DNA of 64,000 nucleotides from the IMG/VR virus record IMGVR_UViG_3300017734_000001; one strand, 5' to 3'. The DNA comes from an uncultured virus (IMG/VR IMGVR_UViG_3300017734_000001) (taxonomy: Duplodnaviria; Heunggongvirae; Uroviricota; Caudoviricetes; Crassvirales). The position numbers and the translations under genes are program-made. The notes under the pieces are model-generated. The model worked only from the letters and a program-made list of their open reading frames with translations. It ran no database searches and was not told the DNA's origin. Shown here piece after piece: positions 21,398 to 64,000 of the stretch. The number at the start of each line of letters is the position of its first letter. Position 1 is the first letter of the stretch.

Positions 21398-21628
21398 TTA
21401 AACTAATTTTTTATCTCGCAAAGCGGAAGGTATATTGTTAGTTGCCGTATAATTTTTATATTTCGACCAACATGGTAGCTTCGATAAACCATTTTTATCC
21501 ATTATTTTATAAGCGACATCGTGGTTATATTTTACCTTGTTACCATTTTTGAATGTTACTTCAATAGTTTGGTTTTTTCCGATTAGACTTTGACGTAGTA
21601 CAAAGCGTTTAGTATTTAAAATAGACAT
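21398..21628 (-). CDS. Early protein, paralog A (TKRFV.R.SL.GKN family)
   Basis: Probable start MSILNTKRF; clearly similar to 22269-22511. Confidence 0.7.
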   Translation of the reverse strand: MSILNTKRFVLRQSLIGKNQTIEVTFKNGNKVKYNHDVAYKIMDKNGLSKLPCWSKYKNYTATNNIPSALRDKKLV

Positions 21629-21659
21629 AGTTTTAATTTTTAAGTTATTAGACATAGAT

Positions 21660-21689
21660 ATAATCAATTAGTATTCGTATTTAGTTTGT
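21660..21689 (-). promoter_or_regulatory. Class I early promoter-like motif, copy 4
   Basis: ATAATCA-N9-CGTATTTAGTTTGT. Confidence 0.8.
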
Positions 21690-21841: not shown

Positions 21842-21871
21842 ATAATCAAATATAGTGCGTAATTGGTTTGT
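21842..21871 (-). promoter_or_regulatory. Class I early promoter-like motif, copy 5
   Basis: ATAATCA-N9-CGTAATTGGTTTGT followed by GTGCTATACAC. Confidence 0.75.
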
Positions 21872-22175: not shown

Positions 22176-22205
22176 ATAATCAAAACACAGGCGTAATTGC
22201 TTTGT
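22176..22205 (-). promoter_or_regulatory. Class I early promoter-like motif, copy 6
   Basis: ATAATCA-N9-CGTAATTGCTTTGT followed by ATGCTATACA. Confidence 0.75.
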
Positions 22206-22268: not shown

Positions 22269-22511
22269 TTACACTAGTTTCGGTAGTTCACGTACGAACT
22301 TCGGGAGGTTGTTCGTGTTAGTATAGTTTTTATACTTCTTGAAACAGTTCATACTCTCGAATTTATCCTTGAGTTGGTTGTAGACAACATCGTGGTTGTA
22401 CTTACACTTTTCACCTTTGTGGTTATTAAACTCGATGATTTGATTTTTACCTACGAGTGATTTACGAATAACGAAACGTTTTGTTGTTAGTATAGAATTT
22501 GTATTAGACAT
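22269..22511 (-). CDS. Early protein, paralog B
   Basis: TKRFVIRKSLVGKNQ..KYNHDVVY..KYKNYT.TNN.P. Confidence 0.7.
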   Translation of the reverse strand: MSNTNSILTTKRFVIRKSLVGKNQIIEFNNHKGEKCKYNHDVVYNQLKDKFESMNCFKKYKNYTNTNNLPKFVRELPKLV

Positions 22512-22553: not shown

Positions 22554-22583
22554 ATAATCAAGATAACCGCGTAGTTACCTTGT
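22554..22583 (-). promoter_or_regulatory. Class I early promoter-like motif, copy 7
   Basis: ATAATCA-N9-CGTAGTTACCTTGT followed by GTGCTATACAC. Confidence 0.7.
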
Positions 22584-22787: not shown

Positions 22788-22816
22788 TTTAATTATACCT
22801 ACTATTATGTAATTAT
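22788..22816 (+). promoter_or_regulatory. Class II promoter-like motif at the start of the morphogenesis arm
   Basis: TTTA-N17-GTAATTAT. Confidence 0.6.
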
Positions 22817-24041: not shown

Positions 24042-25604
24042 ATGGAATTTAATAACCCAAGCGAAATCGTAAAAGACTTGTCTTTTGGCGATAAAGGAAG
24101 AGAGAAGATAATGCTAGGGGTTGATAAGCTTACAAAAGCAGTTGAATCAACCCTTGGCGCATCTGGAAAGTGCGTTATATATGAAGATGCATTAGGAAGA
24201 CCGGTGATAACAAAAGATGGTGTAACCGTTGCGGAAAGCGTAGTCTTAAAAGATCCGGTCGAAAATATAGGTGCTACTTTAATTAAAGAAGCTGCTAAAA
24301 ATACAGTAAAAGAAGCTGGAGATGGTACAACCACAGCTACAGTTCTAGCATCGTCCTTGCTTACTAAATGTAACGAAACATTAGATGTAAGCATAAGAGA
24401 CCTAAAAGATGGTATAGACTCTTGTTTATATAAAGTAATGAAGCACCTAGATAAAAACGCCATACCAGTTGAAGGTGATATGCTTAAAAACGTAGCTACT
24501 ATAAGTTGTAACAATGATAAAGATTTAGGTAGCAAAATAGGTAAAGCATACAAAAAAGTCGGTAGAGATGGTGTTGTGCTTATGGAAGAGTCAGATACAA
24601 ATGAAACATATGTAGAGTTTGTGGATGGTGTTCAGCTTGAGTGCAACTTAAAGTCACAGCATTTAGCTACAAACAAAGATCGCATGACATGTGAGCTTGA
24701 TAATCCATATATTCTGCTAATGATGTCACCAATACCCAATGTTAGAAAAATACAGTCTATATTAGAGTTTGCAATAAAGAAAAACAGATCTTTGCTTATT
24801 ATAGCTGAAATGGAGCAACAACCATATGCCACATTAATAGCTAACAAAGTAAAGGGTAATATAAAAGTTAATGTCGTCGATCCACCAGGATTTGGCCCTA
24901 CTAAGATGGACACTATGGAAGACATAGCGTTCTTAACAGGTGCTAAAGTAATGAACGAAGAATTAGGTGATGATTTAGACCTTATTCAGCCAGATGTTTT
25001 AGGTGAAGCTGTAAAAGCTGTAACAGATGATAAAACGACCGTGCTTCAAGTTGGTGATCTAGGCGAAGCTTTAGCTGATAGAATAAAAACAGTTGAAGAT
25101 AAAATAAAAGAAGAAACTAATCCGTTTTTCAAAAAAAGACTAGAACAAAGGCTAGCTATGCTTAACGGATCAGTAGCTATAGTAAAAGTAGGTGCTGATT
25201 CTAAAGTTGAGCTAAAAGAAAAACGCGATAGAGTTGAAGATGCGATTCACGCAACTAAAGCCGCATACAAAGAAGGTATAGTTCCAGGTGGAGGTATAGC
25301 CCTTTTGAATGCCTCTAAAATAATCAAACCCGCTAACGCGGGTGAACAAGCTCTACTTGATGCTATTAAGTCTCCATACATAACTATACTTAATAACGCC
25401 GGTTTAGACGCATCTTTACAACTAAATAGAAAAGGTTGGGGTATTGATGTTACAACTGGCAAACCTTTGAATATGGCTAGAGCTGGTATCATAGACCCGG
25501 TTTTGGTTACAAAATCGGCGCTCAAAAACGCAGTGAGTGTTGTTAAAACTATTATTTCTGCAGATTGTATAATTAGTAATGTTAGAATAGATGAAAGCAA
25601 TTAA
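24042..25604 (+). CDS. groEL: Phage chaperonin GroEL (Cpn60)
   Basis: ITKDGVTVA, AGDGTTTATVLA, PGFG, ELKEKRDRVEDA..ATKAA..EGIVPGGG, GIIDP. Confidence 0.95.
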   Translation: MEFNNPSEIVKDLSFGDKGREKIMLGVDKLTKAVESTLGASGKCVIYEDALGRPVITKDGVTVAESVVLKDPVENIGATLIKEAAKNTVKEAGDGTTTATVLASSLLTKCNETLDVSIRDLKDGIDSCLYKVMKHLDKNAIPVEGDMLKNVATISCNNDKDLGSKIGKAYKKVGRDGVVLMEESDTNETYVEFVDGVQLECNLKSQHLATNKDRMTCELDNPYILLMMSPIPNVRKIQSILEFAIKKNRSLLIIAEMEQQPYATLIANKVKGNIKVNVVDPPGFGPTKMDTMEDIAFLTGAKVMNEELGDDLDLIQPDVLGEAVKAVTDDKTTVLQVGDLGEALADRIKTVEDKIKEETNPFFKKRLEQRLAMLNGSVAIVKVGADSKVELKEKRDRVEDAIHATKAAYKEGIVPGGGIALLNASKIIKPANAGEQALLDAIKSPYITILNNAGLDASLQLNRKGWGIDVTTGKPLNMARAGIIDPVLVTKSALKNAVSVVKTIISADCIISNVRIDESN

Positions 25605-25848
25605 TTATTATATAGTCTTAGAAAAGATAAAAGAGCAGCCAAAAAGCATTGGCGGTATAGAGTTACTTGAAAAGTATGACAAAGACACTAGATATTCAAA
25701 AGCTAAGGTAATATCTGTTGGTGATAAAGTTGAAGCTGTAAAGCAAGATGATATAGTGTGGTATGACAAACATAATGGTCATGGTATACAATTTGACAAA
25801 AAACTTTATCATGTTGTAAATTTAGGTGATATAGTAATTGTAGAATGA
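25591..25848 (+). CDS. groES: Co-chaperonin GroES (Cpn10)-like
   Basis: SIGGIEL mobile loop, KAKVISVG, VKQDDIV, GDIV; directly after GroEL. Confidence 0.8.
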   Translation: MKAINYYIVLEKIKEQPKSIGGIELLEKYDKDTRYSKAKVISVGDKVEAVKQDDIVWYDKHNGHGIQFDKKLYHVVNLGDIVIVE

Positions 25849-35319: not shown

Positions 35320-35343
35320 ATAATTATTAAAACAAGTGATTAT
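35315..35343 (+). promoter_or_regulatory. Class II promoter-like motif
   Basis: TTTA-N17-GTGATTAT. Confidence 0.6.
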
Positions 35344-39247: not shown

Positions 39248-41666
39248 GTCAGTTGTAAAAAGTTATTTTCCTAGTCAAATAGCTAGCGATTTAGAAAAAG
39301 TAACCGAAGAATACGGTTTAAAAGTTGCTAAAGCTATAGAACATGAGTGGTTTAAAAGAGACTCCGGTACTAATAGGTTTTATAACAATCAAAATACATT
39401 TCACAGAAGAAGATTGTACGCGCGAGGCGAACAGTCTATACAAAAATATAAAGATGAGTTATCTATAAACGGTGACTTATCTTATCTAAATCTAGACTGG
39501 AAACCAGTTCCAATTATATCGAAGTTTGTAGATATAGTTGTTAATGGTATTTCAGAAAGAACTTTTGACATAAAAGCTTTCTCACAAGATCCTTACGGTG
39601 TTCAAAAAAGAACAGACTACATGGAATCTTTAATTAGAGACATGCAAACAAAAGAATTAAATAGCTTCGCTCAAGAAGCTTTTGGTATAAGTTTGTTTGA
39701 AACAGATCAAAACAGTTTACCAGAAAACAAAGAAGAGTTAGAGCTTCACATGCAGTTAGACTATAAAGAAGCTATAGAGATAGCTCAGGAGCAAGCTATA
39801 AATACAATACTAGAAGGAAACAGATATGAGTTGCTTAGAAAAAGACTAAATTACGACTTAACTGTTTTAGGTATTGGTTGTGCTAAAACATCATTTAATA
39901 AATCAGAAGGTATAAAAGTAGAGTATGTAGATCCTGCTGATATTATATTTTCTTATACAGAGTCACCTTACTTTGAAGATATATATTATGTGGGTGAAAT
40001 AAAGACTGTACCTATTAATGAACTTAAGAAACAGTTTCCAGAATTAACAAACGAAGATTTAGAAGAAATAACTAAGCAAGGCGTACAAAATACAGACTTC
40101 TATCACAGAACTATAAACGAAACAAACAACATAGATAAAAACTCTGTGCAGTTATTGTATTTTAATTATAAAACCTACGCTAACGAAGTTTACAAAGTAA
40201 AACAGACAGCAACAGGTGCTTCTAAAATATTAATAAAAGATGATACTTTTAATCCACCTGCAGAAGTTTTAGATCGTAACTTTGAAAAAATATCAAGATC
40301 TATAGAAGTTCTTTATGAAGGTGTTTTAGTTTTAGGTACAAATAAAATGCTAAAATGGGAGTTAGCTAAGAATATGATGAGAACTAAAAGCGACCACACT
40401 AAAGTCAAAATGAACTACAGTATAGTTGCTCCTAGAATGTACAAAGGTCGTATAGAGAGTTTAGTTAGTAGAATTATAGGTTTTGCTGACATGATTCAAA
40501 TAACTCATTTAAAACTACAGCAAGTTTTATCTCGCATGGTGCCTGATGGTATATATTTAGATGCTGATGGTTTAGCTGAAATAGACTTAGGTAATGGAAC
40601 TAACTACAACCCACAAGAGGCGTTAAATATGTTCTTTCAAACTGGTTCTGTTATAGGTAGATCATTTACGTCTGAAGGTGATATGAATCCAGGTAAAATA
40701 CCTGTTCAAGAAATACAATCAGGTTCTGGTAACAATAAAATATCATCTTTAATAACAACGTATAACTATTACATGCAGATGATACGTGATGTGACGGGAT
40801 TAAATGAAGCTAGAGATGGTAGTATGCCTGACAAAAATGCTTTAGTTGGCGTACAAAAACTAGCAGCCGCTAATAGTAATACGGCTACAAGGCATATACT
40901 GCAAAGTGGTTTATTTTTAACAGCTGAAATAGCAGAAGCTTTGTCACTAAGAATATCTGACGTTTTAGAGTATAGTCCAACAAGAGAAGCTTTTATACAA
41001 GCTATAGGAGTTCACAACGTGGCTACGTTAGATGATATATCTGACATGCACTTACATGACTTTGGTATATTTATAGATTTAGCTCCAGATGATGAGCAGC
41101 AAGCTATATTAGAAAATAATATTTAAATGGCACTTAGCCAAGGTACTATAGATTTAGAAGATGCTATTGACGTTAGAGAAATTAAAAACGTTAAGCTTGC
41201 TAATCAATTGCTTAAAATAAAAAGAAAAAAGAAGCAAGAAAAAGATATGCAGATACAGCAAGCTAATATGCAAGCTCAAGCTGATGCAAACGTGCAAGCT
41301 CAACAAGCTGCTGCTCAACTAGAAGTTCAAAAACAACAAGCTTTAGTTGGCGCGCAGGTTCAACTAGAACAAGCTAAATCAAATTTTGAATCACAAAGGC
41401 TTTCTGAAGAAGCTAAATTAAAGAAAGATTTGATGGCTTATGAATTTCAAATTAATATGGCTTTGAAAAGCAAAGAAGCTGAAGTTCATAAAACAAAAGA
41501 GTCTTATAAAGAAAACAGAAAAGACGATAGAACTAAAATACAAGCTTCACAACAAAGCCAACTTATAGAGCAAAGACAAAGAAACACCGGGCCAAAAAAC
41601 TTTGAATCATCTGGCAACGATATACTAAGTGGTGATTTTGATTTAGGTTCGTTTGAACCCAGGTGA
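39240..41666 (+). CDS. Portal protein, interrupted by one in-frame TAA at 41124-41126
   Basis: Follows terL. ORFs 39240-41126 and 41127-41666 are in the same frame (LENNI*MALSQ); Gln-rich coiled-coil C-terminus. Confidence 0.8.
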
Positions 41667-41670
41667 TAAT
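41642..41670 (+). promoter_or_regulatory. Class II promoter-like motif upstream of scaffold/capsid
   Basis: TTTA-N17-GTGATAAT. Confidence 0.6.
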
Positions 41671-46894: not shown

Positions 46895-49800
46895 ATGCCT
46901 GAAATTAAAAATGTTTTTTCGGCAGGTAAAATGAATAAAGACCTGGACGAAAGATTAATTCCCAATGGCCAGTATCGAGATGCTTTGAATATAAAGATAT
47001 CTAGTTCTGAGGGTGCGGACGTAGGTGCAATTGAAAATATATTAGGTAACACAGCTATTTTTAATAGATCTTATAATGAGGTTACTAACTCATACACTCA
47101 ATGGGGTTTAAACGACTCTGACACAAACTACTATGGTTTTGATAACTGTAAAACAGTAGGTGTTATAAGATACGATAGAAATGAAAAAATATATTGGCTT
47201 CTAAGTGGTAGCAATCAAGATGGTATACTAGAGTTTGATCAAACAACTAAAGTTGTATCTCCTGTTGTTATAGATAAAAACAACGTTTTAAAATTTTCAT
47301 CAAATACTCTTATTACAGGTATAAATATAATCGATGGCTTGTTGTTTTTTACTGATGACTTAAATGAGCCAAAATGTATCAACATAGAAAGATTCAAAAC
47401 TGCAGCAGCAGCCTCAGGAGACACTTCTCACACTGAAATTTACGGTAGAGATTTTATAGAATCAGATGTAACCGTAATAAAAAAATCACCTATTACAGCC
47501 CCCACTTTGGAGATGTACAGAACAAAGCAGCTTGACGATAATGGCAATGTTACTAATGTAGATACAGGTTGGTATGGAGCTTTAGGTAGCAATGTAGATG
47601 GTGAACCAACACCATTTGATCCAGGTACTGCTGTTACTATGTATTGGAATCAACCTTATCCTTTTTATAATGTTGGTGATACTTTAGTTTTAACGGCTTC
47701 AAACGGTGAAGATGATGAAGATCATATAGCTAGAGTTAAAGTTTTTGAAGTACCAACAGGTAATACTCAAAACTTTGCTAAAGTAAACGTGTTGTCTATT
47801 AACACAGCACCAGCAACGAGTACATTTTGGGAGGTAACTTTAGAACAAACTCCACCCATGTTTGAGTTTAAGTTTGCTAGGTTTGCGTATAGATATATAT
47901 ACAATGATAATCAAGTTTCTTGTTTTTCTCCTTTTTCTGAGCCAGCATTTTTACCTGACGAAAAAGCTTTTGAATATAACCCAGAGCAAGGTTACAATGT
48001 GTTAATGAAAAACACGGTTAGAAATTTAAAAGTAAAAAACTTCGCGTCAAGTGGGACAGTTCCATCCGATGTAGAAAAAATAGATATATTATATAAAGAT
48101 TCTTCAAACCAAAATGTTTATGTTGTAGATACAATTGAAAAAGACTCTTCTGGTAACTTTGCTAATCAGTATAGTATAAAATCTGAAATAATAAGCAAGG
48201 TTATAGAGTCTAATCAAATACTAAGACCGTTTGATAATGTACCAAGAAAAGCAAAATCTCAAGAAATAATTGCCAATAGGCTAGTTTATGCTAATTATTT
48301 ACAGAACTTTGATATAAAAAATGCAAACGGTGACATTGTAAAACCTAAAGTATCTATAAACATTGACAATTACCCAACTTGGAATATTACTAATGAATCA
48401 GCTGGTAAATCAATAAAAACTTTAAGAACTTATCAAATTGGCGTTGCTTATAGAGATGAACATGGTAGAGAAACACCAGTGTTTTCATCAGAAACAAGTT
48501 CTACTGTATTAGGTAAAACATCAGCAAACTTAAATAATAGAATATCTGCGGTAATAGAATCAGATCCTCCAGAAGGTTTTACTCATTTTAAGTTTTTTGT
48601 TAAAGAAAATTCAAACGAGTACTATAATTTATCAATGGATAGATTTTACGTTGAGTCAGATGATAATGTTTGGATATCTTTTCCATCTTCAGAAAGAAAT
48701 AAAATAAAAGAAGATGACTTTATTATATTAAAAAAACAACACGATAGCAACAACTTTGTTGATGAAGAAGCTAGATACAAAATTATAGCTTTAGAAAATG
48801 AAGCTCCAGACACAATAAAAACAAAAAATGTAAACAAAGCTAAAATACAAGGTTCGGGTAATAATAACACCTTTGTATCTGACGGTCAGCCAGTTGAAAC
48901 TGCTTTAACTTTAAAAATACTAAATCAAGCTTGGGTTGACTCTGGCGCTGATTCTAGAGACAACGCTTTGTTAGGTGAACCACAGCTTTGTTGTAAAATA
49001 TTTACAGAAACAAATACAACACCTGTTTTTTATGATATAGAAAGTATACAAAAAGTTGGATCTGGTAACGATGCTCATTACAAGATTACTTTAAATAAAC
49101 CACTATCTGGTATGGCTTTTGCTACAAGTAATGGTCAAGAAGCTGTAGGTTTAGGTATAAATATATTTCAAAAAGAAATACAAAATAAACCAGAGTTTGC
49201 TGGTAGATTTTTTGCAAAAATATATAGTGATAAAGCTTTAGTTGACAGAATAACATCGGTAAACGAAAAAGAAGGTTATGCTATAGCTTCTACTCGCACT
49301 CTTGGTAAAATGACTAGATTTGGAGATAATGATGATAACTGGAAATCTGGCGATAGAGGTTGGCATATAGATAATTCACAGCCTCGTTATCATACAGCTG
49401 TTCAAGGGGGATTGTTGCCACATAATAGTAATCTTCCTGGAGAAACGCTTAACGTTGGTGCGAAACGAGGTAGAGGGACTAGAGTGGGCTCAAAATACAT
49501 AGATATATGTTATTTTAAATGGGGACCTGGTAGTGGTAGCGCGGCAAGAAACGCATGGGACGGTTATTGGTGGGGCTTTGAAAATAAAGTTCCAGACGCA
49601 GCTGATACAGCTAATTTTTTACAGTCACCTGGACAAAAGATAAGATGGACTGATGATCCAGATGGCACTATATATGAAATAGTCGATTATGCTAGAGTTC
49701 ATTGTGTTACTTATAAAGGCAGCAAAAAAGGAAAGTTCGCTTCATCGAGATTAATAAGATTTACAATTCAACTAGATAAACCTCTAACTTGGTCACCAGA

Positions 49801-51136
49801 TGACTCTTTACAGTTAACAGAAGTAGGTGGAAGTACTACTACTAATTTAGAGTTTTTAAGAATAGTAGATGAAGACTCTGGAACGTACACATCAAAAAAC
49901 CCTGCTATTTTTGAAACTGAGCCCGATGAAAATGTTGACATTGATATATACTATGAAGCTAGTGATAATATACCAATCGCTCAACACGGAACTGAAGCGT
50001 TGCCATCTACTCACGATTTAGATTGGTTCAACTGCTATTCGTTTAACAATGGTGTAGAGTCTGACAGAATAAGAGATGATTTTAACGCTGTAAGAATAGG
50101 TAAAGGTGTAAAAGTATCTGCAACACTAGATGAGCCATACCAAGAAGAAAGAAGAGGATCAGGTTTAATATTTTCTCAAATATTCAACTCTTTAACAGGC
50201 ACAAACAAACTTAATCAGTTTATACAAGCTCAACCTATAACTAAAGACTTAAATCCAGCAAATGGATCAATACAAAAACTTCACGCTAGAGACACAGATT
50301 TAGTTGTAATGTGTGAAGATAAAGTTTTAAAGATTTTAGCTCAGAAAGATGCCTTATTTAACGCAGACGGATCTGCTAACGTTACATCTAACGCGGCTGT
50401 TTTAGGTCAAGCGATACCTTTTGTTGGTGAATATGGTATATCTAAAAACCCAGAGTCGTATGCTTATTATGGTTTTAGATCTTACTTCACAGATAAAAAT
50501 AGAGGTGTTGTTTTAAGGCTATCAAGAGATGGTTTAGAAGAAATATCTTCAAACGGCATGAGCGATTATTTTTCAGATAAACTTGCTTCAGAAAACACAA
50601 TGATTGGCAACTACGACGAAGACTCTGGATGCTACAATGTTAGTTTTTCTGATGAAACAGTTTCTTTTGAAGAAACAGTTAGAGGTTGGCCAACTAGAAA
50701 ATCTTTTGTAGCTGAAGCTGGTGTATCTTTAAATAACATATATTACACATTTAAAGATGGTGTCATATGGTCACATGACAATCAAACAAGAAATAACTTT
50801 TATGGTACTCAATATAAATCAACAGTAAAGCTAGTGTTTAACGAGTCACCATCAAAAATTAAAAACTTTAAAACAATATTTTACGAAGGAGACTCTGGTT
50901 GGACTTGTCCAAAAATATCTACAGATCAACAAGACGGTAGCGTTCCAGGCTTTTCTAATAAAGAAGGTATATATTATAACTTTATAAAAGGCATTGAAAA
51001 CACATGGGATAATAACTTTCAAGCTGGTACTCTAGATACTAAAGAGTTTTCAACGCAAGGTATAGATATACTTGGATCAATAACTGGCACAACTAAGAGT
51101 GACTTTATTTTAACAATAGAAGAAGACGGAAATTAA
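46895..51136 (+). CDS. Large tail nozzle/stabilisation-type protein
   Basis: F.AGKMNKDLDERL.PNGQYRDALN N-terminus; beta-rich, GEYGISKNPES near the C-terminus. Confidence 0.65.
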   Translation: MPEIKNVFSAGKMNKDLDERLIPNGQYRDALNIKISSSEGADVGAIENILGNTAIFNRSYNEVTNSYTQWGLNDSDTNYYGFDNCKTVGVIRYDRNEKIYWLLSGSNQDGILEFDQTTKVVSPVVIDKNNVLKFSSNTLITGINIIDGLLFFTDDLNEPKCINIERFKTAAAASGDTSHTEIYGRDFIESDVTVIKKSPITAPTLEMYRTKQLDDNGNVTNVDTGWYGALGSNVDGEPTPFDPGTAVTMYWNQPYPFYNVGDTLVLTASNGEDDEDHIARVKVFEVPTGNTQNFAKVNVLSINTAPATSTFWEVTLEQTPPMFEFKFARFAYRYIYNDNQVSCFSPFSEPAFLPDEKAFEYNPEQGYNVLMKNTVRNLKVKNFASSGTVPSDVEKIDILYKDSSNQNVYVVDTIEKDSSGNFANQYSIKSEIISKVIESNQILRPFDNVPRKAKSQEIIANRLVYANYLQNFDIKNANGDIVKPKVSINIDNYPTWNITNESAGKSIKTLRTYQIGVAYRDEHGRETPVFSSETSSTVLGKTSANLNNRISAVIESDPPEGFTHFKFFVKENSNEYYNLSMDRFYVESDDNVWISFPSSERNKIKEDDFIILKKQHDSNNFVDEEARYKIIALENEAPDTIKTKNVNKAKIQGSGNNNTFVSDGQPVETALTLKILNQAWVDSGADSRDNALLGEPQLCCKIFTETNTTPVFYDIESIQKVGSGNDAHYKITLNKPLSGMAFATSNGQEAVGLGINIFQKEIQNKPEFAGRFFAKIYSDKALVDRITSVNEKEGYAIASTRTLGKMTRFGDNDDNWKSGDRGWHIDNSQPRYHTAVQGGLLPHNSNLPGETLNVGAKRGRGTRVGSKYIDICYFKWGPGSGSAARNAWDGYWWGFENKVPDAADTANFLQSPGQKIRWTDDPDGTIYEIVDYARVHCVTYKGSKKGKFASSRLIRFTIQLDKPLTWSPDDSLQLTEVGGSTTTNLEFLRIVDEDSGTYTSKNPAIFETEPDENVDIDIYYEASDNIPIAQHGTEALPSTHDLDWFNCYSFNNGVESDRIRDDFNAVRIGKGVKVSATLDEPYQEERRGSGLIFSQIFNSLTGTNKLNQFIQAQPITKDLNPANGSIQKLHARDTDLVVMCEDKVLKILAQKDALFNADGSANVTSNAAVLGQAIPFVGEYGISKNPESYAYYGFRSYFTDKNRGVVLRLSRDGLEEISSNGMSDYFSDKLASENTMIGNYDEDSGCYNVSFSDETVSFEETVRGWPTRKSFVAEAGVSLNNIYYTFKDGVIWSHDNQTRNNFYGTQYKSTVKLVFNESPSKIKNFKTIFYEGDSGWTCPKISTDQQDGSVPGFSNKEGIYYNFIKGIENTWDNNFQAGTLDTKEFSTQGIDILGSITGTTKSDFILTIEEDGN

Positions 51137-54469: not shown

Positions 54470-54493
54470 TATTTAGTGATAAAGTGTAATAAT
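54465..54493 (+). promoter_or_regulatory. Class II promoter-like motif upstream of internal-protein genes
   Basis: GTTA-N17-GTAATAAT (one mismatch). Confidence 0.55.
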
Positions 54494-54513: not shown

Positions 54514-55155
54514 ATGAATAACAATATGAAACCATCACCGCTAAAAGTGCCAATAGGAGCCATAATGCAAGGCGTTCAAGGTCTAGCTGGTATAGCTGGA
54601 GGCATTATAGGTAGCCGATCAAGAAAACAAGAGCAACGTAATGCACAAGCAGAATATGAAAGAAGAAAAGCGGATTATCAAAGTTTAGACACATCTAATC
54701 CATACCTAAACCAAGAGAACGTTTATGAAGATTTAACAGTAAACACTCAAGCGGCTGATTTCGCAGCGCAACAACAACAACAAGCTGCTGCTAACACTAT
54801 GGATACGATGGCTAGCGCTGCTGGTGGATCTGGTATAGCTGCGTTAGCTCAAGCTATGGCTGGTCAACAAGCTCAAAATTTACAAGGTGCATCAGCTAGT
54901 ATAGCTCAACAAGAGTCTGCTAACGAGATGGCTCAAGCTAACATGGCTGGACAGTTACAATCGCAAGAAAGACAAGGTGAGGTTTACTCTAGAAACTTAC
55001 AAAAGGATAAAGTTGAAACATTGATGGGTATGTCGCAGCAAAGACTAGCGGCTGCAAATCAAGCTAGACAACAAGCTACGCAATCAATAATGGGTGGTGT
55101 AGGTAATTTAGTTGGAGGAGCTGCTCAAGGCTTCGACGCAATGAAAAGAGATTGA
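54514..55155 (+). CDS. Putative ejection/internal virion protein
   Basis: Gly/Ala hydrophobic ends, Gln/Ala-rich core; SPLK near the N-terminus. Confidence 0.6.
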   Translation: MNNNMKPSPLKVPIGAIMQGVQGLAGIAGGIIGSRSRKQEQRNAQAEYERRKADYQSLDTSNPYLNQENVYEDLTVNTQAADFAAQQQQQAAANTMDTMASAAGGSGIAALAQAMAGQQAQNLQGASASIAQQESANEMAQANMAGQLQSQERQGEVYSRNLQKDKVETLMGMSQQRLAAANQARQQATQSIMGGVGNLVGGAAQGFDAMKRD

Positions 55156-56690
55156 TAATGGCAAAACAAAATGAATTAATAGCACAGCAAGGTCTTATCT
55201 ACAATAGTAGATACTATGACCCTTCTTTGTCCCTAGCACAACCTTTTGCTAGAGCTGAAAGAGTTATAGATTACAATAACAGACGTAGAAGGGCTAATAA
55301 AGCTGCAGCTGAAGCTAAAGTTTCTCAATACGTAGAAAATCTAGCAGGTGATTTGCCAAACATAAGTAAGATATCTCCAAAGTACAGAAACAAAATAAAC
55401 GAGTTTTTAGTAAGTAAAAGAAGAGAGTATACTAACGCAAGTAAAGTTATAGGTAGATTTGCACCAGGCACAACTGCATATATGGAAGCTGTGTCTAAAA
55501 TGAACTCCATAAGTGACTCATTTAAAAACCTTAGTAATCAGTTTGATTTATTTAAAAAACTAAAAACAGAAGAGCTACCTGACTTTCAAAATAGATTATT
55601 GTCTGAAGCTAATAATCCAAACAATATAAGTTTAATGTCTAGTATACTTACGGATGAGCTTGACGTTGAGGTTGGTGAAGGTGGTAGTTTAAGTTTCGTT
55701 CAACAGGTTCAAGATGAACTAGGTAACATAAGTTTATCTCAAACTAGTTTAAACGATTTACCTAAGTATTTTAATAAAGACTTTGATACAGCCACAAAGA
55801 TTATAGAAATGAATAAAACTTTGTATAATGGCAGTAAAAAAATGACGCCAGCTATGGCTAAGTTTGTTGAAATGCAACTTAGAAACCATATGATGCAAGG
55901 TGGTAGAGAAACAGTTTTGTCTTTAGCTGTTGATGATTTTATCATACCAGATGGTTTAGGTTTAGATGACGATCTTCTTTTTAACGAAGAAAGACACGAC
56001 GAACTTGTTGATGTTGTGGTAGATCAATACTTGAACATGTTAAAACAATCTGCTGATACTGGATACGAGTCAAGAAGAGCTGCTGATATTCAGACTATAA
56101 AAGACAGAAAAGCTGCAAGTGGAACTAGCAGTACTAGTACTAGCAACGAAGAGACAGACTTGTTTACACCTGGCCAAAGACAAGATATTATGTTAAACCA
56201 ACAGTTTGCTCAAAACATAAAAAATAGAGCTAAAGATATGTTTGATAGAATAAACGATCCTAGCATGCTAGCAAATTTTGATGGTAGATTTAATGAATTA
56301 TCAGATTTATACATAAAAACTATAGGCATGAATAGCCCAGACATGGCTAACAGATATATAGATAGAAATAGACACTACGAAATGTGGAAACAACAACACA
56401 AGGATGTTCCAGATTTTGACGTGCAAGGTGAGTATAACAAAAGATTTGGTGCTGGTGATAGAATATTTGTAAACCTAACAGGCCAAGGTAGAGATTTAGG
56501 TAATGTATTTCAATATCAAGCCGTAGACCCTTTTGTTAACGCTGCCGATTTTGATCAATTCTACAGAGATTTACTTATAACATCTGGCATGGATCCAAAA
56601 ACAGCTAACTACTTTGTTTATGGAATAGAAGGCATGACAGGCGGTGAAGACGCTGCTGATGATGAAGGTGTATTAAACGTATCAAATTAA
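55152..56690 (+). CDS. Putative internal virion protein
   Basis: Helical 512-aa protein between the ejection-like gene and the giant gene. Confidence 0.5.
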   Translation: MIMAKQNELIAQQGLIYNSRYYDPSLSLAQPFARAERVIDYNNRRRRANKAAAEAKVSQYVENLAGDLPNISKISPKYRNKINEFLVSKRREYTNASKVIGRFAPGTTAYMEAVSKMNSISDSFKNLSNQFDLFKKLKTEELPDFQNRLLSEANNPNNISLMSSILTDELDVEVGEGGSLSFVQQVQDELGNISLSQTSLNDLPKYFNKDFDTATKIIEMNKTLYNGSKKMTPAMAKFVEMQLRNHMMQGGRETVLSLAVDDFIIPDGLGLDDDLLFNEERHDELVDVVVDQYLNMLKQSADTGYESRRAADIQTIKDRKAASGTSSTSTSNEETDLFTPGQRQDIMLNQQFAQNIKNRAKDMFDRINDPSMLANFDGRFNELSDLYIKTIGMNSPDMANRYIDRNRHYEMWKQQHKDVPDFDVQGEYNKRFGAGDRIFVNLTGQGRDLGNVFQYQAVDPFVNAADFDQFYRDLLITSGMDPKTANYFVYGIEGMTGGEDAADDEGVLNVSN

Positions 56691-56701
56691 AATAAAATAA
56701 C

Positions 56702-59700
56702 ATGCTAGAAAAACTATACAATGTTTTGTATGATAAAAAATTATTCACACAAGACTTTGATAAATTTAAACAAGCTTGGAGTAACGAAGAATATAAGAAA
56801 AAAGTATACGACGTTGTAAACTCTAAGAAACTTTTCACGCAAGATTATGATGTTTTTGTAAACGCATATAGCGAGGGAAAGCAACAGGGCGATGTTGCAA
56901 CGGATGCAGCTGCAGAGCCCGCAGAAGATTTGGCATCCACATCGGCAATTACTTCATCGGACTTATCTTTACCAATACCTCAAAGTGAAGGGCCTGCTGA
57001 TCCTGAAGCATACACTACAGATTTAGGATTAACTTACGGCGATCAAAGAACATCTCAAGAACAAATAGACGACTTTATGAATAATATGTACCAAGCTTTG
57101 TCAGCTACAGGTACATATGAATTTTTAAAAGAAAAAGATTTAGAAGAAAGATACTACTACGCTGGTAAACTTATATCAAACCCTACAGGTTCACCTAAAG
57201 ACATTAAATTATCTTATTACAATTACTTCAAAGACATAAAGATAAAAGGTGTAAAAGATCCTAAAGCTATACTAGAACCTTTGTTTTTAGATAAAGATCA
57301 AATAAAAGAAGATTATTTTAAAATTAAAAACCTTAAAAACGATTTAAATATAAAAGACTTTTATGATCAAGGCGGAACAGAAGATGTGTTAATTAAAAAC
57401 GCTGATGATGCTGTAGATGAATTGATTCACGAAAGTGATTACATGAACAAAGAGTTTTTACCTTACTTTTTTAAAAAATACGAAGAAGATTTTTACAATA
57501 AACAAATAGAAACAATAGAGTCAATGGAAGTAGATTTTATCGGTCAAGATGAACTAGATAAAATCGAAGCTGAAATGGAGAACTATCAACTAGAGATGCT
57601 AAAACAAGAGCTAGCTTCAGATGTTGGTTATAAAGATTTAGTTAGTAAAGTAACGAGTGTTGTTTCAAATGATTTAGGTATAGATATAAAAGCTTTAAAT
57701 AAAACTAAAGTAATACCTAATTGGGCTGAAGGCTCTGATTTTTTAGAAGGTATATACAGGTTTACTAAGCAATGGGCTAGCGGTGAAGCCGGTGAGAAAA
57801 TGGCTAATATATCTAAAGAAAATAAAGGTATAGATAACTTTTTAAAAGCTTACCAAAGCGGAGAATACACGGAGCAAGAATTAGCTGAGATAGCTAAAGA
57901 AAATTTAACAGATGCAGACTTAACGCTTTTATATCCATCTAAGTCTGTAGCACTTAGTAGAGCTCAGTGGATTGGCGCTGATAATTACGAAGAACTGATA
58001 GATAAGGCTAGGGCAGGTATAAAAGATCCTGTCTCTTACTTGAAGAAAAAGAAAAAATTTCTAAATAAGCAGTTTATTAATAGCATGCAAGACAGCGAAG
58101 AGCTTTCTAAAGTGTTATCCATAATGGACAATACTGAGTTTTTTGATGAAGATGGTGTTACTATTGATGATTTTCAAAGAATGGCAGGTGAACAGCTACC
58201 TCAAATGGCTCAAGCTATTCTAACTTTAGGTTACGGTACTTATATGCAGGAAGCTGGTGGTATATACGTAGAGTCAATGTATAAAATAGCGGAGGCTAAA
58301 TATGGACCATTAGCTTTAGGTATGGCTAGTAAAGAACAAAAAGAACAAATGTTCTTAGAGATAATGGAAGCTGGAGAAGATAATCCAGATGCAGCTATTG
58401 AAGGTGGTGTTATAAACGCTGGTTTAGATTTTGGTTCATCAATTTTTGTAGTAACAAAGGCTGGTAAATTTATACCTAAACAAGCCTGGAGATCTTTGCT
58501 TAGAGGTGAGTTTAAAAAAGCCTTAAAAAAAGCTGGAGGTAAAGACTTGCTAGAAGATGCTTTAAAAATATCTATAGCAGAAAGTATTACAGAGGGTTCT
58601 CAAGAGACAGTTTCTATGCTTAAAGTAGGTAAAAGCACAGGTTACTACAATTTTGATCCAAAAAGAATAAAAGAAGGTGCAGCTCAAGGTTTTGCTAGTT
58701 CATTACTGTTTTTTGGTTTAGGTAAGAGTAGATCTGCTTATAATTATTTAACAGATGGCATTGGTTTACAATACTCTAGATTTAAAAATAAAGATCACAT
58801 ATTAAATTTAATTAAACTAGAAAAACAAAAAATAAAACAAGATCTTAAAAATGGCAATATAACAAAACAAGAAGCCATTGATAAAGTTAAGAAAGCCAAC
58901 GCTAAAAGAGATGTTATAGTTGATAACGATGTTTACAATGTTTCTGAAAATAACAGACAACAAGCATTTGACGCTACAGAAGCTGTTGTTGATGAACAAG
59001 TTAAACTTGACACAGCGCTAGACAACCTAAAGCAAGCAAAAAACAACCCTTCTGCTACAGATCAAGATATTGAGTTTAGAGAGGCAGAGGTTAATAATCA
59101 AAAAGAAAGACTTGCAGATGCTAAATTTGAACTTAATAAAGCAAAGCAGAAAGACAATGCTAGTAAAGATATAAGCAGAGCTTCTAATAGAATTAATCAA
59201 ACAAAAGAAGGTGAATTAGCTGATAAACAACTTATTACATTTAGAACTAGAAAAGAAGCAGCTGCATTTGTAAAAAGATACAAAATAAAAGTAGACGCAA
59301 ATATTGAAGGGTTACTAAATGGTGGGGCCTCAGGAGCAGCTTTAGCGCCTGGACAGACTATAAGATACAAAGGTGAAGATATAGTGCCAGCTTTTGTTGT
59401 GAAACAAACAATAAATGAGCAAATCGATAATTCTACTAGACAAAACGATTTTAGTTTACGATCTGCTTTTGCGGCTAGTCACGAGGTTAATCACTTTATA
59501 TTAGATACCGTTGACCCAAAAGTGTTAGATGGTGTTGTATCTAAGTTAAAAAACGACATGCGTAATTCTGGAGACATCGAAACTAATGCGGTTTTAGAGA
59601 TTGTTGAAACCATGATGGTGGAATATGTAAAAAAAGATCCAAAAATATCTAGAGACTATTTAAACCAAGAGTTTTTAGCTGGTTTAGGTGATGTGCTACA

Positions 59701-62700
59701 AACTTTTAAAGCTTTAAAACCTAAATCTCCATTTCAAAGAATGTTTATAGACTTTGGTGAATCTATTTCAAAAATTATAAACGCTAACACAGGATTAAAT
59801 GTAAACTACAACGATGCTAATTCTGTGCTAGGCTTTCTTAAAAATTATAACAAATTTTTAGGTAAAAATGCACCTATAGTAATAAAAAGTGGTACTGATA
59901 TTGATGGCGAGAAAAAGTCTAGAGCTCAAATAAGCTTAGAGCAGCAGAAGAAGCTTTTAGTAGATGAGAATAAGATTTTAGCACCTATGATGCGTACTAA
60001 CGCTTCTGCCGCTAAAAAAATACAGGAAAACGTAGATAAGATAAAAGCTATAAGTGCTCAAATAATAGAAGAAAAAGAGCTAGCAGAAAACTTAAAGTTT
60101 GCTCCTGGTTTATCTAAAAAAGCAAAAGATATTACAAGAAAAAATGAGCTCAATTGGAGTGAGCTTATGGATCCAGCTACTAAAGAATCTGACAAAACAG
60201 CTTTAAAAAATAAAATATACGAAGACAATCAAGGTACTATTATAAACATTATAAGAAAAACATTTAATCCAAATATAGAAAGCAATCTAACAGCTGAAGA
60301 TTACGCACAAGCAATGCAGCTTGAAGCCTTGAAGATGATCGATTCTTACGAAAAGACATATAACAAAAAGAAAGCAGAAGGTACATTAGCACCGTGGAAC
60401 TTTTATTTAAAAGATAACTTACCTAAGAGACAAGGAGCTATACTTAAAAAACTTATAGGTGATAAGTCTATGATGTTTATGGGTGATGCTACAGCTAGTA
60501 TAGGTAGCGCTCAACTTGGTTATACACCTGATTATGGTAATTTTAGTAATGAAGAATACATCGAACAACAAGGTGTAATAGTAGATGAAGTTTTAGCTTT
60601 CACACCAGAAATTAAAGCAGAAATAAGAGAGGCTGCTAAAAAAGTTTTATCAACTTTTAAAGGTGATTCAGGTGTTAATCTTAAAAAACAACTTGGCGAT
60701 GCTCTTGAAGTAATGCTAAAGCCTTATATTCAAACAAATGTATTGGGTAGTAAGGTAAAGAAAAACTACAAAGGGCAAACGTATAGAGAGTTTATGCAGC
60801 AAAACTGGGAAGATATATATTCTATAATAGGTTTTGACGTTATAAATACCAGACTTACATCTAGAACTAAACAAGAGAAAGCGGCTGGCATACCAAATCC
60901 TTTTATATTTAAAATAACTAAAGACGGTAAGCAAGTTAGAGATAGTAGATTAGAAGACCTAACTGGTAAAGGTAGAGGTAAAGCTAAAAAGAGAATAGTT
61001 AATCAAGAAGAGTTTATAAAATTCTTTTTTGGTGAATTAGTAAATCCTTCTACACAAGGTACTAGAAAAGATACTTTAGCAGAAATAATAGCTAGAGAAG
61101 CTGGCTTAGATCAAATAAGCTGGATGCTAGAAAACGATACTGAGTTTTTAGATTTATTTAAACAAAAACAAGACTTGTTAGGTACTCTTATAGATAATGA
61201 TTACATCGAGAGTATACAAAGACAAATTGACAGGTTTGATGGTTCAAGAAGACCAGGGTCAAGAGCACAGTTAGTCATAGACAGCGCTAACTACAACGGT
61301 TTAAGCTCTAGCGCTGCTATGAACGTATTAGAAGACATTAAAAACAACGAGATAATAGATTACAAGTCTCAACCATTAAATCGATTTAGAAATGATGTTT
61401 TAGACATGATAAGAGTTGGTAATGCTTACGCTGCTATAGATTTATACCATACCCCAACAGACGAAGACATTAAGGTTGATGGTAAGTATAAACTTAACAA
61501 TGAAGGCTTACAACTATCAAATGTTAAATCGGATGGTGATGTTAGTGTAAGAGTTAAAATTAGCTCAGCTGGAAACTTATTTGTGCCTAAAGAGTTTTCT
61601 TGGAATGGTGGATTTAGCATAATGAGATCTTTAGATATAGAGTTAAAAGGTTATGATGTTGCTATGTCTAGAATACCAGACGAAGATGGTAGTTATTTTG
61701 CTAAATGGTTAGTTGATAATAACATACTAACAAAAAAGCAAGTAGAAAAAGATGCTAGCGCTAGTGGTATAAGAGAAACTTTAGTGTCTGAAGGTTATAC
61801 TTCAATAACATATCCTAAAGCTGATGGTAGCTTTGGCTATATAATACTAAACAACGAAGCTTTTGACTTGTCTTTTGATAATAAAATAAACAATCAAATA
61901 AAAAGCTTAATGAGTGATTCAGGCTCAAGAGCTCAGTTGGTTGGTATGAAGGGAAAAATGAGTGAGATCATTGAGCAGAAATCAAAAGGTAAAATAAAAG
62001 CCAATGAAGTATTATCTAACGCTGCTGCAAGAAACATGCGTAGAAAAGCTGGACTTAACTTTAGCAATCTATATGTTCCTTATCAACTAGAAGACTTTGT
62101 AGGTTTAACATATGCTTTCACGCCAGAAGGTAAAAAAGGTGAAGCCGCTCAAGAGTTTATAAAAGAAAGAGTGATGAATCCTTATTTTGAAGCTAAAGAG
62201 CAGTATAGAGTTTTTCAGCAAAACTTAAACGCTAACTTTAATAGATTACTTAGTGATGTTGGTATTACAGCTAAAACACTTAAAGAAACAGTAGACATAC
62301 TAGGTAAACCGTTTACTAAAGATCAAATAGTTAGAGCTTATTTGTTTTCTACACAAGGAGCTGATATAGATCCTTCTATATTAAGCCCAAAAGAAATACA
62401 AGCTTCATTAGACTATATAAAGTCAGATGAAAAGCTTTTGATGCTTGCAGCAATGCTACCAACAATACTAGATAACAAAGGCGGTTGGGTACGGTATAGA
62501 GGTGAAATGCACGAAACTTTATCTATTGATATAGTTAAGTTTGCAGAAGGTAAAAGAAAAATATTTTTTGAAAGATTTAAAGACAATATAGATATAATAT
62601 TTGATCCTCAAATAAAAGAAAAGTTAAGAGGTTTGCTAGGTGAAACATACGTTAAAGAACTAGAAAGCTCCCTTAAAAGGATGTACACAGGTAGAAATGA

Positions 62701-64000
62701 AAGCCAAAACGCTAGTCCAATGGTTAACGAGATTATGACTTGGTTTAATGGCTCTGTTAATACTATAATGTTCTTTAACATGAGATCTGCTAGCTTACAG
62801 TTGCTTTCTACAATTAACTTTGTTAACTGGACCGATAACAACCCCATAGCTGCTGGTGCTGCCTTTTCTAATCAAAAGCAGTTTTGGTCTGACGTGTCTA
62901 TGCTTATGAATACAAGTTACATAAAAGACAGGATGGGTAACATGAAGTTTGATGTTGAAGCTGATATTCTTGTTGAAATGGGCAAAACATCAAAAACATA
63001 TAACGATCTTTTAGCTAAACTTTTTAAGCTAGGTTATGCACCTACAAGACTTGCTGACTCGTTTGCTATAACTTTTGGTGGTGCTACTTTTTACAGAAAT
63101 AGATTCAACACTTACAAAAAACAAGGTATGTCAGACGCTAATGCTAATGCTAAAGCTTTGGTAGACTTTGAAAGAACGGCTGAGGTTAGCCAGCAGTCTA
63201 GTGATCCATCTAAAATAGCAAGTGCGCAGATTGGTAGTTACGGTAGATTCCTTTTTGCTTTTGCTAACACTCCATTTCAATATGCTAGATTATCAAAGAA
63301 AGCTGCTTTAGATATAATAAATAACAGAGGTGATTTAAAAACCAATATATCTAAACTAACGTACTACACTTTTGTTCAGTCTATAATATTTTCAGCCTTA
63401 CAAAACGCCGTGTCTTTAAAAGATTTAATTGATTTGGGAGATGAAGAAGATGATAGAATGGACGAAACAACTAGAGGGGCTTTATATTTTGGAGTTAATT
63501 CTTTGATAGATGGTCAATTGAAAAACTTTGGTGCTAGAGTTGGTATTTCATCTATACTAGCAAAAAATGCTTTGTTGCTGCAAATACAAAGAGATCTTTA
63601 CAGAGAGTTTGGTAAAGATGCTATTGGTGGACCTTTTGATTTAGTTAAAGCTGCTAGACCTGAAATTGGTCAAATGGTTCTTTTGGCTAGTTCTGTTTCT
63701 CCGCCAATGTCAACCAAGACTAGAAAATTATTTGCTATAGACAGAATGGATATCTATAATCAAATACGAGAGAAAAAAGAGTTTTACGACTTAACAGATA
63801 CATGGTATGTATATCCACAAGATCCAACGTGGCAAACATACGCTACATATTTAAACGTAGCACTTAATATACCAGCTGATAGATTATTACAAAAATTAGA
63901 AAATATATCTTTCGCTATGTATGATGAGTTTGATTATGCCACAAGATTTGCGTTTTTAGCTGGTTGGAGCAAATGGAACTTACTACCAAAAGATGACTTT
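56702..64000 (+). CDS. Giant multidomain (polyvalent) internal virion protein, 3'-truncated, at least 2433 aa
   Basis: ATG at 56702 (MLEKLYNV...). Every segment translated is open, the last codons are in frame (..WNLLPKDDF), and the track lists no closed ORF in this frame. Contains HEVNH, sigma-2-like and ART-like segments. Confidence 0.85.
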   Translation, partial: MLEKLYNVLYDKKLFTQDFDKFKQAWSNEEYKKKVYDVVNSKKLFTQDYDVFVNAYSEGKQQGDVATDAAAEPAEDLASTSAITSSDLSLPIPQSEGPADPEAYTTDLGLTYGDQRTSQEQIDDFMNNMYQALSATGTYEFLKEKDLEERYYYAGKLISNPTGSPKDIKLSYYNYFKDIKIKGVKDPKAILEPLFLDKDQIKEDYFKIKNLKNDLNIKDFYDQGGTEDVLIKNADDAVDELIHESDYMNKEFLPYFFKKYEEDFYNKQIETIESMEVDFIGQDELDKIEAEMENYQLEMLKQELASDVGYKDLVSKVTSVVSNDLGIDIKALNKTKVIPNWAEGSDFLEGIYRFTKQWASGEAGEKMANISKENKGIDNFLKAYQSGEYTEQELAEIAKENLTDADLTLLYPSKSVALSRAQWIGADNYEELIDKARAGIKDPVSYLKKKKKFLNKQFINSMQDSEELSKVLSIMDNTEFFDEDGVTIDDFQRMAGEQLPQMAQAILTLGYGTYMQEAGGIYVESMYKIAEAKYGPLALGMASKEQKEQMFLEIMEAGEDNPDAAIEGGVINAGLDFGSSIFVVTKAGKFIPKQAWRSLLRGEFKKALKKAGGKDLLEDALKISIAESITEGSQETVSMLKVGKSTGYYNFDPKRIKEGAAQGFASSLLFFGLGKSRSAYNYLTDGIGLQYSRFKNKDHILNLIKLEKQKIKQDLKNGNITKQEAIDKVKKANAKRDVIVDNDVYNVSENNRQQAFDATEAVVDEQVKLDTALDNLKQAKNNPSATDQDIEFREAEVNNQKERLADAKFELNKAKQKDNASKDISRASNRINQTKEGELADKQLITFRTRKEAAAFVKRYKIKVDANIEGLLNGGASGAALAPGQTIRYKGEDIVPAFVVKQTINEQIDNSTRQNDFSLRSAFAASHEVNHFILDTVDPKVLDGVVSKLKNDMRNSGDIETNAVLEIVETMMVEYVKKDPKISRDYLNQEFLAGLGDVLQTFKALKPKSPFQRMFIDFGESISKIINANTGLNVNYNDANSVLGFLKNYNKFLGKNAPIVIKSGTDIDGEKKSRAQISLEQQKKLLVDENKILAPMMRTNASAAKKIQENVDKIKAISAQIIEEKELAENLKFAPGLSKKAKDITRKNELNWSELMDPATKESDKTALKNKIYEDNQGTIINIIRKTFNPNIESNLTAEDYAQAMQLEALKMIDSYEKTYNKKKAEGTLAPWNFYLKDNLPKRQGAILKKLIGDKSMMFMGDATASIGSAQLGYTPDYGNFSNEEYIEQQGVIVDEVLAFTPEIKAEIREAAKKVLSTFKGDSGVNLKKQLGDALEVMLKPYIQTNVLGSKVKKNYKGQTYREFMQQNWEDIYSIIGFDVINTRLTSRTKQEKAAGIPNPFIFKITKDGKQVRDSRLEDLTGKGRGKAKKRIVNQEEFIKFFFGELVNPSTQGTRKDTLAEIIAREAGLDQISWMLENDTEFLDLFKQKQDLLGTLIDNDYIESIQRQIDRFDGSRRPGSRAQLVIDSANYNGLSSSAAMNVLEDIKNNEIIDYKSQPLNRFRNDVLDMIRVGNAYAAIDLYHTPTDEDIKVDGKYKLNNEGLQLSNVKSDGDVSVRVKISSAGNLFVPKEFSWNGGFSIMRSLDIELKGYDVAMSRIPDEDGSYFAKWLVDNNILTKKQVEKDASASGIRETLVSEGYTSITYPKADGSFGYIILNNEAFDLSFDNKINNQIKSLMSDSGSRAQLVGMKGKMSEIIEQKSKGKIKANEVLSNAAARNMRRKAGLNFSNLYVPYQLEDFVGLTYAFTPEGKKGEAAQEFIKERVMNPYFEAKEQYRVFQQNLNANFNRLLSDVGITAKTLKETVDILGKPFTKDQIVRAYLFSTQGADIDPSILSPKEIQASLDYIKSDEKLLMLAAMLPTILDNKGGWVRYRGEMHETLSIDIVKFAEGKRKIFFERFKDNIDIIFDPQIKEKLRGLLGETYVKELESSLKRMYTGRNESQNASPMVNEIMTWFNGSVNTIMFFNMRSASLQLLSTINFVNWTDNNPIAAGAAFSNQKQFWSDVSMLMNTSYIKDRMGNMKFDVEADILVEMGKTSKTYNDLLAKLFKLGYAPTRLADSFAITFGGATFYRNRFNTYKKQGMSDANANAKALVDFERTAEVSQQSSDPSKIASAQIGSYGRFLFAFANTPFQYARLSKKAALDIINNRGDLKTNISKLTYYTFVQSIIFSALQNAVSLKDLIDLGDEEDDRMDETTRGALYFGVNSLIDGQLKNFGARVGISSILAKNALLLQIQRDLYREFGKDAIGGPFDLVKAARPEIGQMVLLASSVSPPMSTKTRKLFAIDRMDIYNQIREKKEFYDLTDTWYVYPQDPTWQTYATYLNVALNIPADRLLQKLENISFAMYDEFDYATRFAFLAGWSKWNLLPKDDF

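Follow-up and report, generated by a model that had tools for sequence, protein, structure and literature searches.

The locus analysed here raises the question of how a phage related to the crassviruses, in which no virion polymerase is recognizable, starts the transcription of its early genes. To our knowledge, known phages do so either through the host holoenzyme or through a packaged polymerase. In the present case, part of a giant cargo-position protein resembles domain 2 of sigma70 factors (sigma2) and one of its residues tracks a base of the presumed early promoter; therefore, the phage may bring along a promoter-reading factor instead of a polymerase.

The giant cargo-position protein and its sigma2-like module

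The window, by which we mean the whole stretch of 64,000 nucleotides from this uncultured virus, covers most of a phage genome of ~65-70 kb. Its terminase, portal and capsid-block genes have their nearest matches in flavobacterial podophages (terminase identity is 46% with Elemovirus and 31-38% with Pachyviridae and Pervagoviridae); we infer a flavobacterial host. The genes that set the scene lie in the right part of the window:

46895..51136, plus strand: muzzle-like tail protein (PF25729, E 5.4e-10; phrog_14478)
54514..55155, plus strand: first cargo-position gene (213 aa), with HMM homology to annotated structural proteins
55152..56690, plus strand: second cargo-position gene (512 aa), assigned by position only
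56702..>64000, plus strand: giant cargo-position (polyvalent) protein, >2433 aa, its ORF open at the window end
62708..63457, plus strand: conserved C-terminal family domain of the giant protein, the marker used to collect relatives

The muzzle-like gene contains the crassvirus muzzle C-terminal domain, a sequence likeness that ties this phage group to crassvirus-type virions. Downstream of the tail block come the three genes of 213, 512 and >2433 aa, the giant gene being the last, in an order that is kept in cultured relatives. Homologues of the first of the three in phi38:1, elemoA and phi13:2 (HMM E 6e-7, 2e-5 and 2e-4, in a comparison with 10 proteins) bear the annotation "virion structural protein". 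Because of the position of its gene and the homology of this neighboring cargo gene, the giant protein, which contains no cysteine and is 2484 aa long in a 94% identical relative (P0001), is probably delivered with the phage DNA from the virion, as its crassvirus counterparts are. A pair of genes at 24042..25848 is, presumably, GroEL-like and GroES-like; the elemoA annotation includes both GroEL and GroES.

The virion RNA polymerases of crassviruses occupy the same position, after a muzzle-like gene and two smaller cargo genes (crAss001 gp47/49/50; PMC10172136, PMC7886860), and crAss001 cargo is described in the former article as two smaller proteins plus polymerase-associated proteins. No D.D.D motif was found in the giant protein as far as the window reaches, and D[FY]D[GI]D is missing from all of 70 giant proteins and 183 ORFs of at least 600 aa; a Pfam RdRP search of five relatives gave no match, but it gave none with the controls either and so carries no information.

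An earlier note on this DNA had proposed that a sigma-70 region-2-like domain is embedded in this protein. The residues it quoted are in frame, at 60182-60460 of ORF 56702..>64000, and the limits it gave, 59918-61258, reach from the SRAQ motif at R1074 to the following one at R1521. The parts of the protein that matter here are the following:

59480..59671, plus strand: zincin/MPTase-like motif, HExxH (H927-H931) with E990, invariant in alignment A1
59918..59932, plus strand: SRAQ linker 1, bordering the module on the left, a candidate cleavage site; the motif recurs at other domain borders
60113..60475, plus strand: sigma70 domain-2-like module, aa ~1138-1258, from fold search and profile matches
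60296..60343, plus strand: region 2.2-like helix, predicted to bind core, with E1199, D1200, Q1203, Q1206, L1207, L1210 and D1214, from the predicted interface with the β' clamp helices
60404..60439, plus strand: region 2.3-2.4-like helix with Y1235, the conserved R1243 and A1246, from alignment and covariation
60563..61243, plus strand: downstream helical domain (pLDDT 86.7 and pTM 0.85 when folded alone)
61259..61273, plus strand: SRAQ linker 2, bordering the module on the right and aligning with the FSK-type motif of relatives
61925..61939, plus strand: SRAQ linker 3, from motif recurrence

Single sequences say little about the module. Against Pfam Sigma70_r2 (PF04542), the window piece alone stays below the cut-off (E 0.063-0.072, ~13-13.5 bits against 24), and the best relative, at 19.6 bits, is also under the gathering score of 24; the family appears at E 8e-4 to 0.012 in three of 25 whole relatives and at E<=0.1 in just one of 44 domain pieces. 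Nothing informative came from scanning the giant protein as a single sequence against Pfam and PHROG, and no Pfam LPD family was matched; hhalign gave a probability of 1.3% when the sigma2 profile was compared with the phage's own free sigma factor. When a profile of the 44 domains was run against the PDB, four of the five best matches were sigma factors (SigK, the sigma2 part of SigE and two FliA entries; E 0.011-0.14). An AlphaFold2 model of the module (pLDDT 67, from 22 alignment rows), of which residues 19-139 align with sigma2 domains, was used to search 48,161 chains: ranks 1-12 are all sigma factors, and the first non-sigma chain comes at rank 13 with Z 6.4. The best match, SigK 8vjl_B, has a VIA Z of 7.6 (rmsd 3.1 Å, 97 residues aligned), a modest value within the range that the tool rates ambiguous for helical bundles. 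SigI6 (8i24_F), SigB (8x6g_H) and FliA/sigma28 are also among the close solved chains, and rank 5 (Z 7.1) is held by 7d7d_F, which we take to be T4 gp55. Foldseek with the 406-aa model returned nothing at E<=0.001 in the PDB or BFVD. Despite the modest Z and this null result, we accept the predicted sigma2 fold as very probably real, because the ranking is consistent and agrees with the profile matches; on both counts the domain proposed in the note is borne out. On the best reading, the module would work like a sigma70-family factor. We do not class it as a complete member of that family, because it lies under the Pfam cut-off and because region 4 was not found.

The likeness to sigma70 domain 2 extends from the predicted fold to the predicted interface with the β' clamp helices. 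Co-folding of the sigma2 module with residues 235-350 of Flavobacterium johnsoniae β', a stand-in for the phage's actual host, scored 0.76 against 0.18 for the best control; 116 of 157 solved pairs and two of 215 mismatched ones attain the docking mark. The runs have at least 65% of their contacts in common, with a partner pLDDT of at least 79. Predicted contacts with the clamp helices are made by E1199, D1200, Q1203, Q1206, L1207 and L1210, presumably equivalent to sigma70 402-413, so that docking takes place through the canonical region-2.2 positions, as would be expected from the note's proposal. Since many comparable complexes have been solved, and the prediction may be remembered from them, the docking shows likeness to sigma2 rather than binding.

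The domain that follows sigma2 measures 230-270 aa in relatives, where it occurs as two related subtypes with a conserved RK and D. The note had seen no clear region-4 helix-turn-helix in these ~270 aa. This holds: Pfam detects none and no sigma4 is among the fold matches listed, within searches that cover the listed families and leave an unlisted region-4 family possible. The fold search with this domain gave no clear match (best Z 4.6), although many weak winged-helix matches of ~60 residues were returned (Z 3.5-4.2). Its best rows in BFVD are two uncultured-virus proteins (E 0.014 and 0.092), probably members of the same family, and the ESM Atlas gave no match; the absence of a fold match is not proof of a new fold.

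Ahead of the module, HExxH is found in 64 of 69-70 giant proteins, a median of 273 aa before the sigma2 recognition helix, and this segment is a candidate self-processing protease by analogy with the proteases of phage polyvalent proteins, which, in Iyer et al. 2017 (PMC5512222), are proposed to release domains. The polyvalent MPTase proteins treated there share with the present one a giant multidomain build, HExxH...E, swappable domains and the proposed self-processing; the word "sigma" does not occur in the main text of that article. The SRAQ motifs at residues 1074 and 1521 flank the module and a third is at 1743. They would be the cleavage sites, to judge from their placement; the linker motif was counted in 45 of 69 giant proteins with a loose pattern and without a chance control. 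Swapped-in domains, a HAD-like DxD motif (recognized by eye) and an AAA_33/zeta-like kinase, are seen in the giant proteins of P0008, P0061 and L036; in L036, the kinase sits between the protease motif and sigma2.

Early promoter-like sites and the free sigma factor

The sites that the module is proposed to read, here called class I, have the general form ACA-N7-YACG-N10-GATWAT. In the window, ACAANNNANNTACG-N9-TGATTAT is present in seven exact copies where 0.10 would be expected, all on the minus strand between 17629 and 22583 and ahead of small leftward genes:

22554..22583, minus strand: class I early promoter-like site, exact motif
22176..22205, minus strand: class I site, exact motif
21842..21871, minus strand: class I site, exact motif
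21660..21689, minus strand: class I site, exact motif
20715..20744, minus strand: class I site, exact motif
19185..19214, minus strand: class I site, exact motif
17629..17658, minus strand: class I site, exact motif

TGATTAT alone is not enriched in the window (25 against 17.8 expected). A matrix search found class I arrays in 25 of the 29 relatives examined, some of whose contigs were covered in part. An ORF lies no more than 120 nt away on the same strand at 111 of 119 strict class I sites, and on the opposite strand at 12. In the reverse approach, 46 of 47 contigs chosen by the motif alone match the relaxed pattern, against none with a reversed control, and the giant-protein marker is present in 45 of the 47 and in 35 of the 35 near-complete ones. 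The σA motif of the host-type bacterium F. psychrophilum is TAnnTTTG, not GATAAT (PMC9723704).

Several smaller features accompany the array. The element TGTATAGCA precedes the three outermost class I sites (22583, 22205 and 21871, minus strand) and is missing from the inner four. Two paralogous genes of ~80 aa, at 21398..21655 and 22269..22511, stand directly behind class I sites and have no Pfam match; their products are candidates for first-made host-takeover proteins. The end of a tRNA-Arg(TCT) gene (17657-17731) abuts the site at 17629-17658. Inverted GTGACA pairs are found at 14435-14478 and 21779-21824 of the window, and a TGTGAC/TGCGAC element, possibly an operator or an origin, recurs upstream of the HTH gene at 13821..14441 in most of 22 contigs. 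In G024, G052, G064 and G088, class I sites on opposite strands lie back to back at the edge of the early region.

The phage also encodes a sigma factor of its own, together with sites of a second class:

13085..13834, minus strand: full sigma factor encoded by a gene of its own, with regions 2 and 4 (Pfam region 2 E 2.5e-4, region 4 E 2.6e-3)
13048..13055, minus strand: class II site (GTAATTAT) ahead of the ERF gene, recurring upstream of orthologues
22809..22816, plus strand: class II site where the rightward (late) block begins, from the motif
35336..35343, plus strand: class II site, from the motif
41663..41670, plus strand: class II site, from the motif
54486..54493, plus strand: class II site ahead of the three cargo-position genes, from the motif

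The nearest solved match of this protein is FliA (1rp3, E 3.5e-6), and its gene was detected in 24 of 31 contigs in one set of relatives and in 36 of 40 in another; in G011, G013 and G076 it is split over two frames or ORFs, as is the giant gene of L050, either by an assembly error or by a real break. The free sigma probably reads class II. The evidence for class II YGTRATWAT is its recurrence, assessed by eye, upstream of orthologous genes in relatives, whereas GTRATWAT alone shows no enrichment in the window (23 against 19.8 expected). Of the resemblance between the two classes that the earlier note had pointed out, the common RATWAT stands, but the class II octamer it gave does not rise above background.

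Covariation of a recognition-helix residue with the promoter

The base that precedes GATWAT differs by genome and is T in the window, where it goes with A1246. This residue belongs to the column three positions after the conserved arginine (R+3), which has the highest AMI, 0.45, of 610 columns over 45 genomes; columns of the free sigma reach at most 0.34 and those of the C-terminal domain at most 0.28. The alignment was automatic; mixed genomes did not enter the AMI test but were counted in a plurality table. The comparison covered genomes with at least two sites, leaving aside G068, where sigma2 could not be located, G083 and G087, in which there is no giant gene, and G044, G052, G054, G056 and G064, whose giant gene was outside the sequence set. 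In the plurality table (63 genomes), E is paired with G in 12 of 15 cases and A, T or G with T in 20 of 22; D goes with C in five genomes, A in five and T in two, and 10 of the 14 genomes with other residues have A. Seven of eight C-type genomes have D or E at R+3. The pairing of E with G and of T with T was set down before set 2 was translated, and the wider residue classes are post hoc. That set, which had been selected for T, A or C before GATWAT, yielded seven RAIx-type domains, all non-E and all T-type. It counts against a role in promoter reading that the sigma2 domains are so divergent, with 10-20% identity between subtypes, while the motif is constant.

Kinship weakens this signal. After dereplication at 80%, R+3 ties with a column of the free sigma (0.343 against 0.338) that lies outside region 2.4, and at 70% it drops to fourth. 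Most T-type genomes form one clade; phylogenetically independent pairs go in the same direction and are too few, with p of at least 0.125 on all three trees. Exceptions include G081, G066 and G028, in which E is paired with A or C, G047, in which D is paired with T, and many mixed genomes. At face value, then, the module and the early motif covary strongly, in line with one of the checks listed in the note, but the link is not significant once kinship is controlled. Region 2.4 of the free sigma, on the other hand, hardly varies between genomes of the G, T, C and A types, and the covariation, as a pattern in sequences, favors the virion module over the free sigma as the reader of class I.

In sigma70 terms, the covarying residue probably corresponds to position 441, in a register obtained by ungapped extension of the SigK profile alignment; a low-probability hhalign alignment gave another register. 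An assignment to T440 had been considered and was replaced by 441 on the SigK profile alignment. The numbering of the class I bases as -13 and -12 is likewise by analogy. In Pseudomonas aeruginosa sigma28, I79 and R80 are the equivalents of W433 and W434, and D87, the 441 equivalent, touches -13C (PMC12784957). The sigma28 element is C-13 G-12 ATAA (bioRxiv 2020.01.02.893370); its CGATAA is close to the module's presumed -10-like hexamer GATWAT. For sigma70, PMC2613000 and PMC8407463 have Q437 and T440 reading -12 and R441 affecting binding.

A possible injected sigma factor, its alternatives and its relatives

We consider it likely that the module of the giant protein is a virion-delivered early sigma acting with the host core polymerase on class I promoters. 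The giant polyprotein would be packed and ejected like crassvirus cargo, and its HExxH protease may free a module of ~450 aa (SRAQ 1074-1521), unless the module works attached. The sigma2 part is predicted in silico to bind the β' clamp helices of the host core RNA polymerase; comparison suggests that it would then read and open N(-13)-GATWAT, with the region-2.4 residue setting the -13 base. The downstream domain might replace regions 3-4 and bind ACA-N7-YACG. The note had likewise let it read ACA..TACG; consistent with this, relaxed YACG is found in 3 of 42 genomes with one subtype of the domain and 8 of 23 with the other (Fisher p 0.012, uncorrected for kinship and for the motif-based choice of set 2), a weak covariation to which the fold search adds no clear match. 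Early transcription would afterwards make the free sigma (13085..13834), which would take over at class II YGTRATWAT.

The proposed job, starting early transcription, is that of the crassvirus and N4 virion RNA polymerases, except that the module would recruit the host core instead of replacing it: the phage would supply the specificity factor only, whereas crassviruses deliver a whole polymerase. The note's suggestion that a sigma-like factor stands in for the virion RNA polymerase is partly supported, by the sigma2 fold, the docking, an RNAP catalytic motif having been looked for and not found, and, at face value, the covariation. The module differs from sigma70 factors in being embedded in a polyprotein of 2.4 kaa, in having no region 4 that we could find and in its three-part promoter. 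T4 gp55 is a sigma2-centered phage factor that acts on the host core and has no region 4; it is, however, synthesized late in infection as a separate protein and needs gp33/gp45, whereas the present module is encoded among virion cargo genes and tied to early promoters.

The same fold could serve the opposite end, as a decoy or anti-sigma that sits on the β' clamp and shuts host promoters while class I sites are read by something else. The core-binding positions are kept in the sigma2 domain, no region 4 was found, and sigma2 subtypes have been swapped between the close kin G009 and G011 without a change of promoter, all of which would suit a decoy. Yet the best-covarying column is on the DNA-reading helix, the swapped domain of G009 keeps E with a G-type promoter, and there is no other candidate reader at time zero; we hold this explanation to be unlikely. 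Less probable still is that the free sigma reads both classes, in which case the virion module would do no more than activate or tether at ACA..YACG, or the free sigma would itself be packaged. The two classes do share RATWAT, the free sigma is widespread (24/31 and 36/40 contigs), and one of its columns ties with the sigma2 column after dereplication. But that column is outside region 2.4, one and the same region-2.4 sequence accompanies G-, C- and T-type promoters, and since the free-sigma gene lies downstream of the class I array, something else must transcribe it first.

Transcription drives DNA entry in T7 and N4, and the sigma2 part might tether the ejected protein to transcribing host polymerase and so, above all, pull the DNA in, with the choice of promoters a secondary matter. 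The cargo position of the giant gene and the clustering of class I sites at one genome end would fit such a tether, to which we give little credence since the covariation points to sequence reading, and which is in any case compatible with an injected early sigma. It is hardly credible, lastly, that class I sites are host promoters, for instance SM5 boxes (the flavobacterial TAnnTTGY) lying on the opposite strand, and that the likeness to sigma2 is incidental: the reverse complement of TAnnTTGY (motif from PMC9723704) is contained in 49 of 119 sites but missing from 70, ORFs are on the GATWAT strand at 111 sites against 12 on the other, and GATWAT and the spacing are fixed.

A broader statement, which we regard as reasonably probable, is that a large group of uncultured marine podophages of flavobacterial type injects a polyprotein that yields a two-domain hybrid sigma, made of sigma2 and a new reader of upstream elements; this would redirect the host core polymerase immediately to private promoters, with a residue-to-base code at -13, a third route into early transcription that needs neither the host sigma nor a virion polymerase. 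If true, delivery of a sigma alone would be a cheaper way than the other two and would explain a crass-related lineage without a virion polymerase. A sigma with an upstream reader other than region 4 would widen the range of possible sigma building blocks, and the system might yield orthogonal promoters for Bacteroidota. With a defined promoter and a single-residue prediction, a two-component test in vitro is possible without culturing the phage. We found no virion-delivered sigma in print among open-licence PMC articles and bioRxiv.

The giant-protein family forms 655 clusters at 50% identity, 150 of them listed, and 80 IMG/VR loci were collected through the C-terminal marker. HMM searches located sigma2-like sequence in 67 of 81 giant ORFs, and the remaining 14 have divergent versions recognized by eye or by weak BLAST matches. 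Queries with the module, with the C-terminal part of the giant protein and with the free sigma had no tblastn match among 50,697 GenBank phage records, so that no cultured phage is known to carry the giant protein. The nearest cultured phages, Elemovirus, Pachyviridae and Pervagoviridae, share with the window's phage the gene order, flavobacterial hosts and a homologous first cargo gene, and their last gene is likewise giant and bears a structural annotation; searches in them detected neither the sigma2 module nor a class I array nor a homologue of the free sigma. In four cultured or GenBank relatives, neither sigma2 nor the downstream domain was matched (best E 0.007), and no class I array was seen in five such records. 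A standard array is also lacking in G003, G016 and G022, which are near-complete and have a sigma2-like domain, and in the partial G017, a point against the proposed link between module and promoter. G016 and G017 have one site each with a shorter ACA-to-GATAAT spacing, and the free sigma of G016 is divergent. L040 (from G009) and L044 (from G011) combine near-identical downstream domains and promoters with very different sigma2 subtypes, both with E at R+3, a contrast that suggests domain swapping. Finally, the 129.5-kb contig G056 carries two class I arrays and two giant-protein matches and is probably made of two genomes joined.
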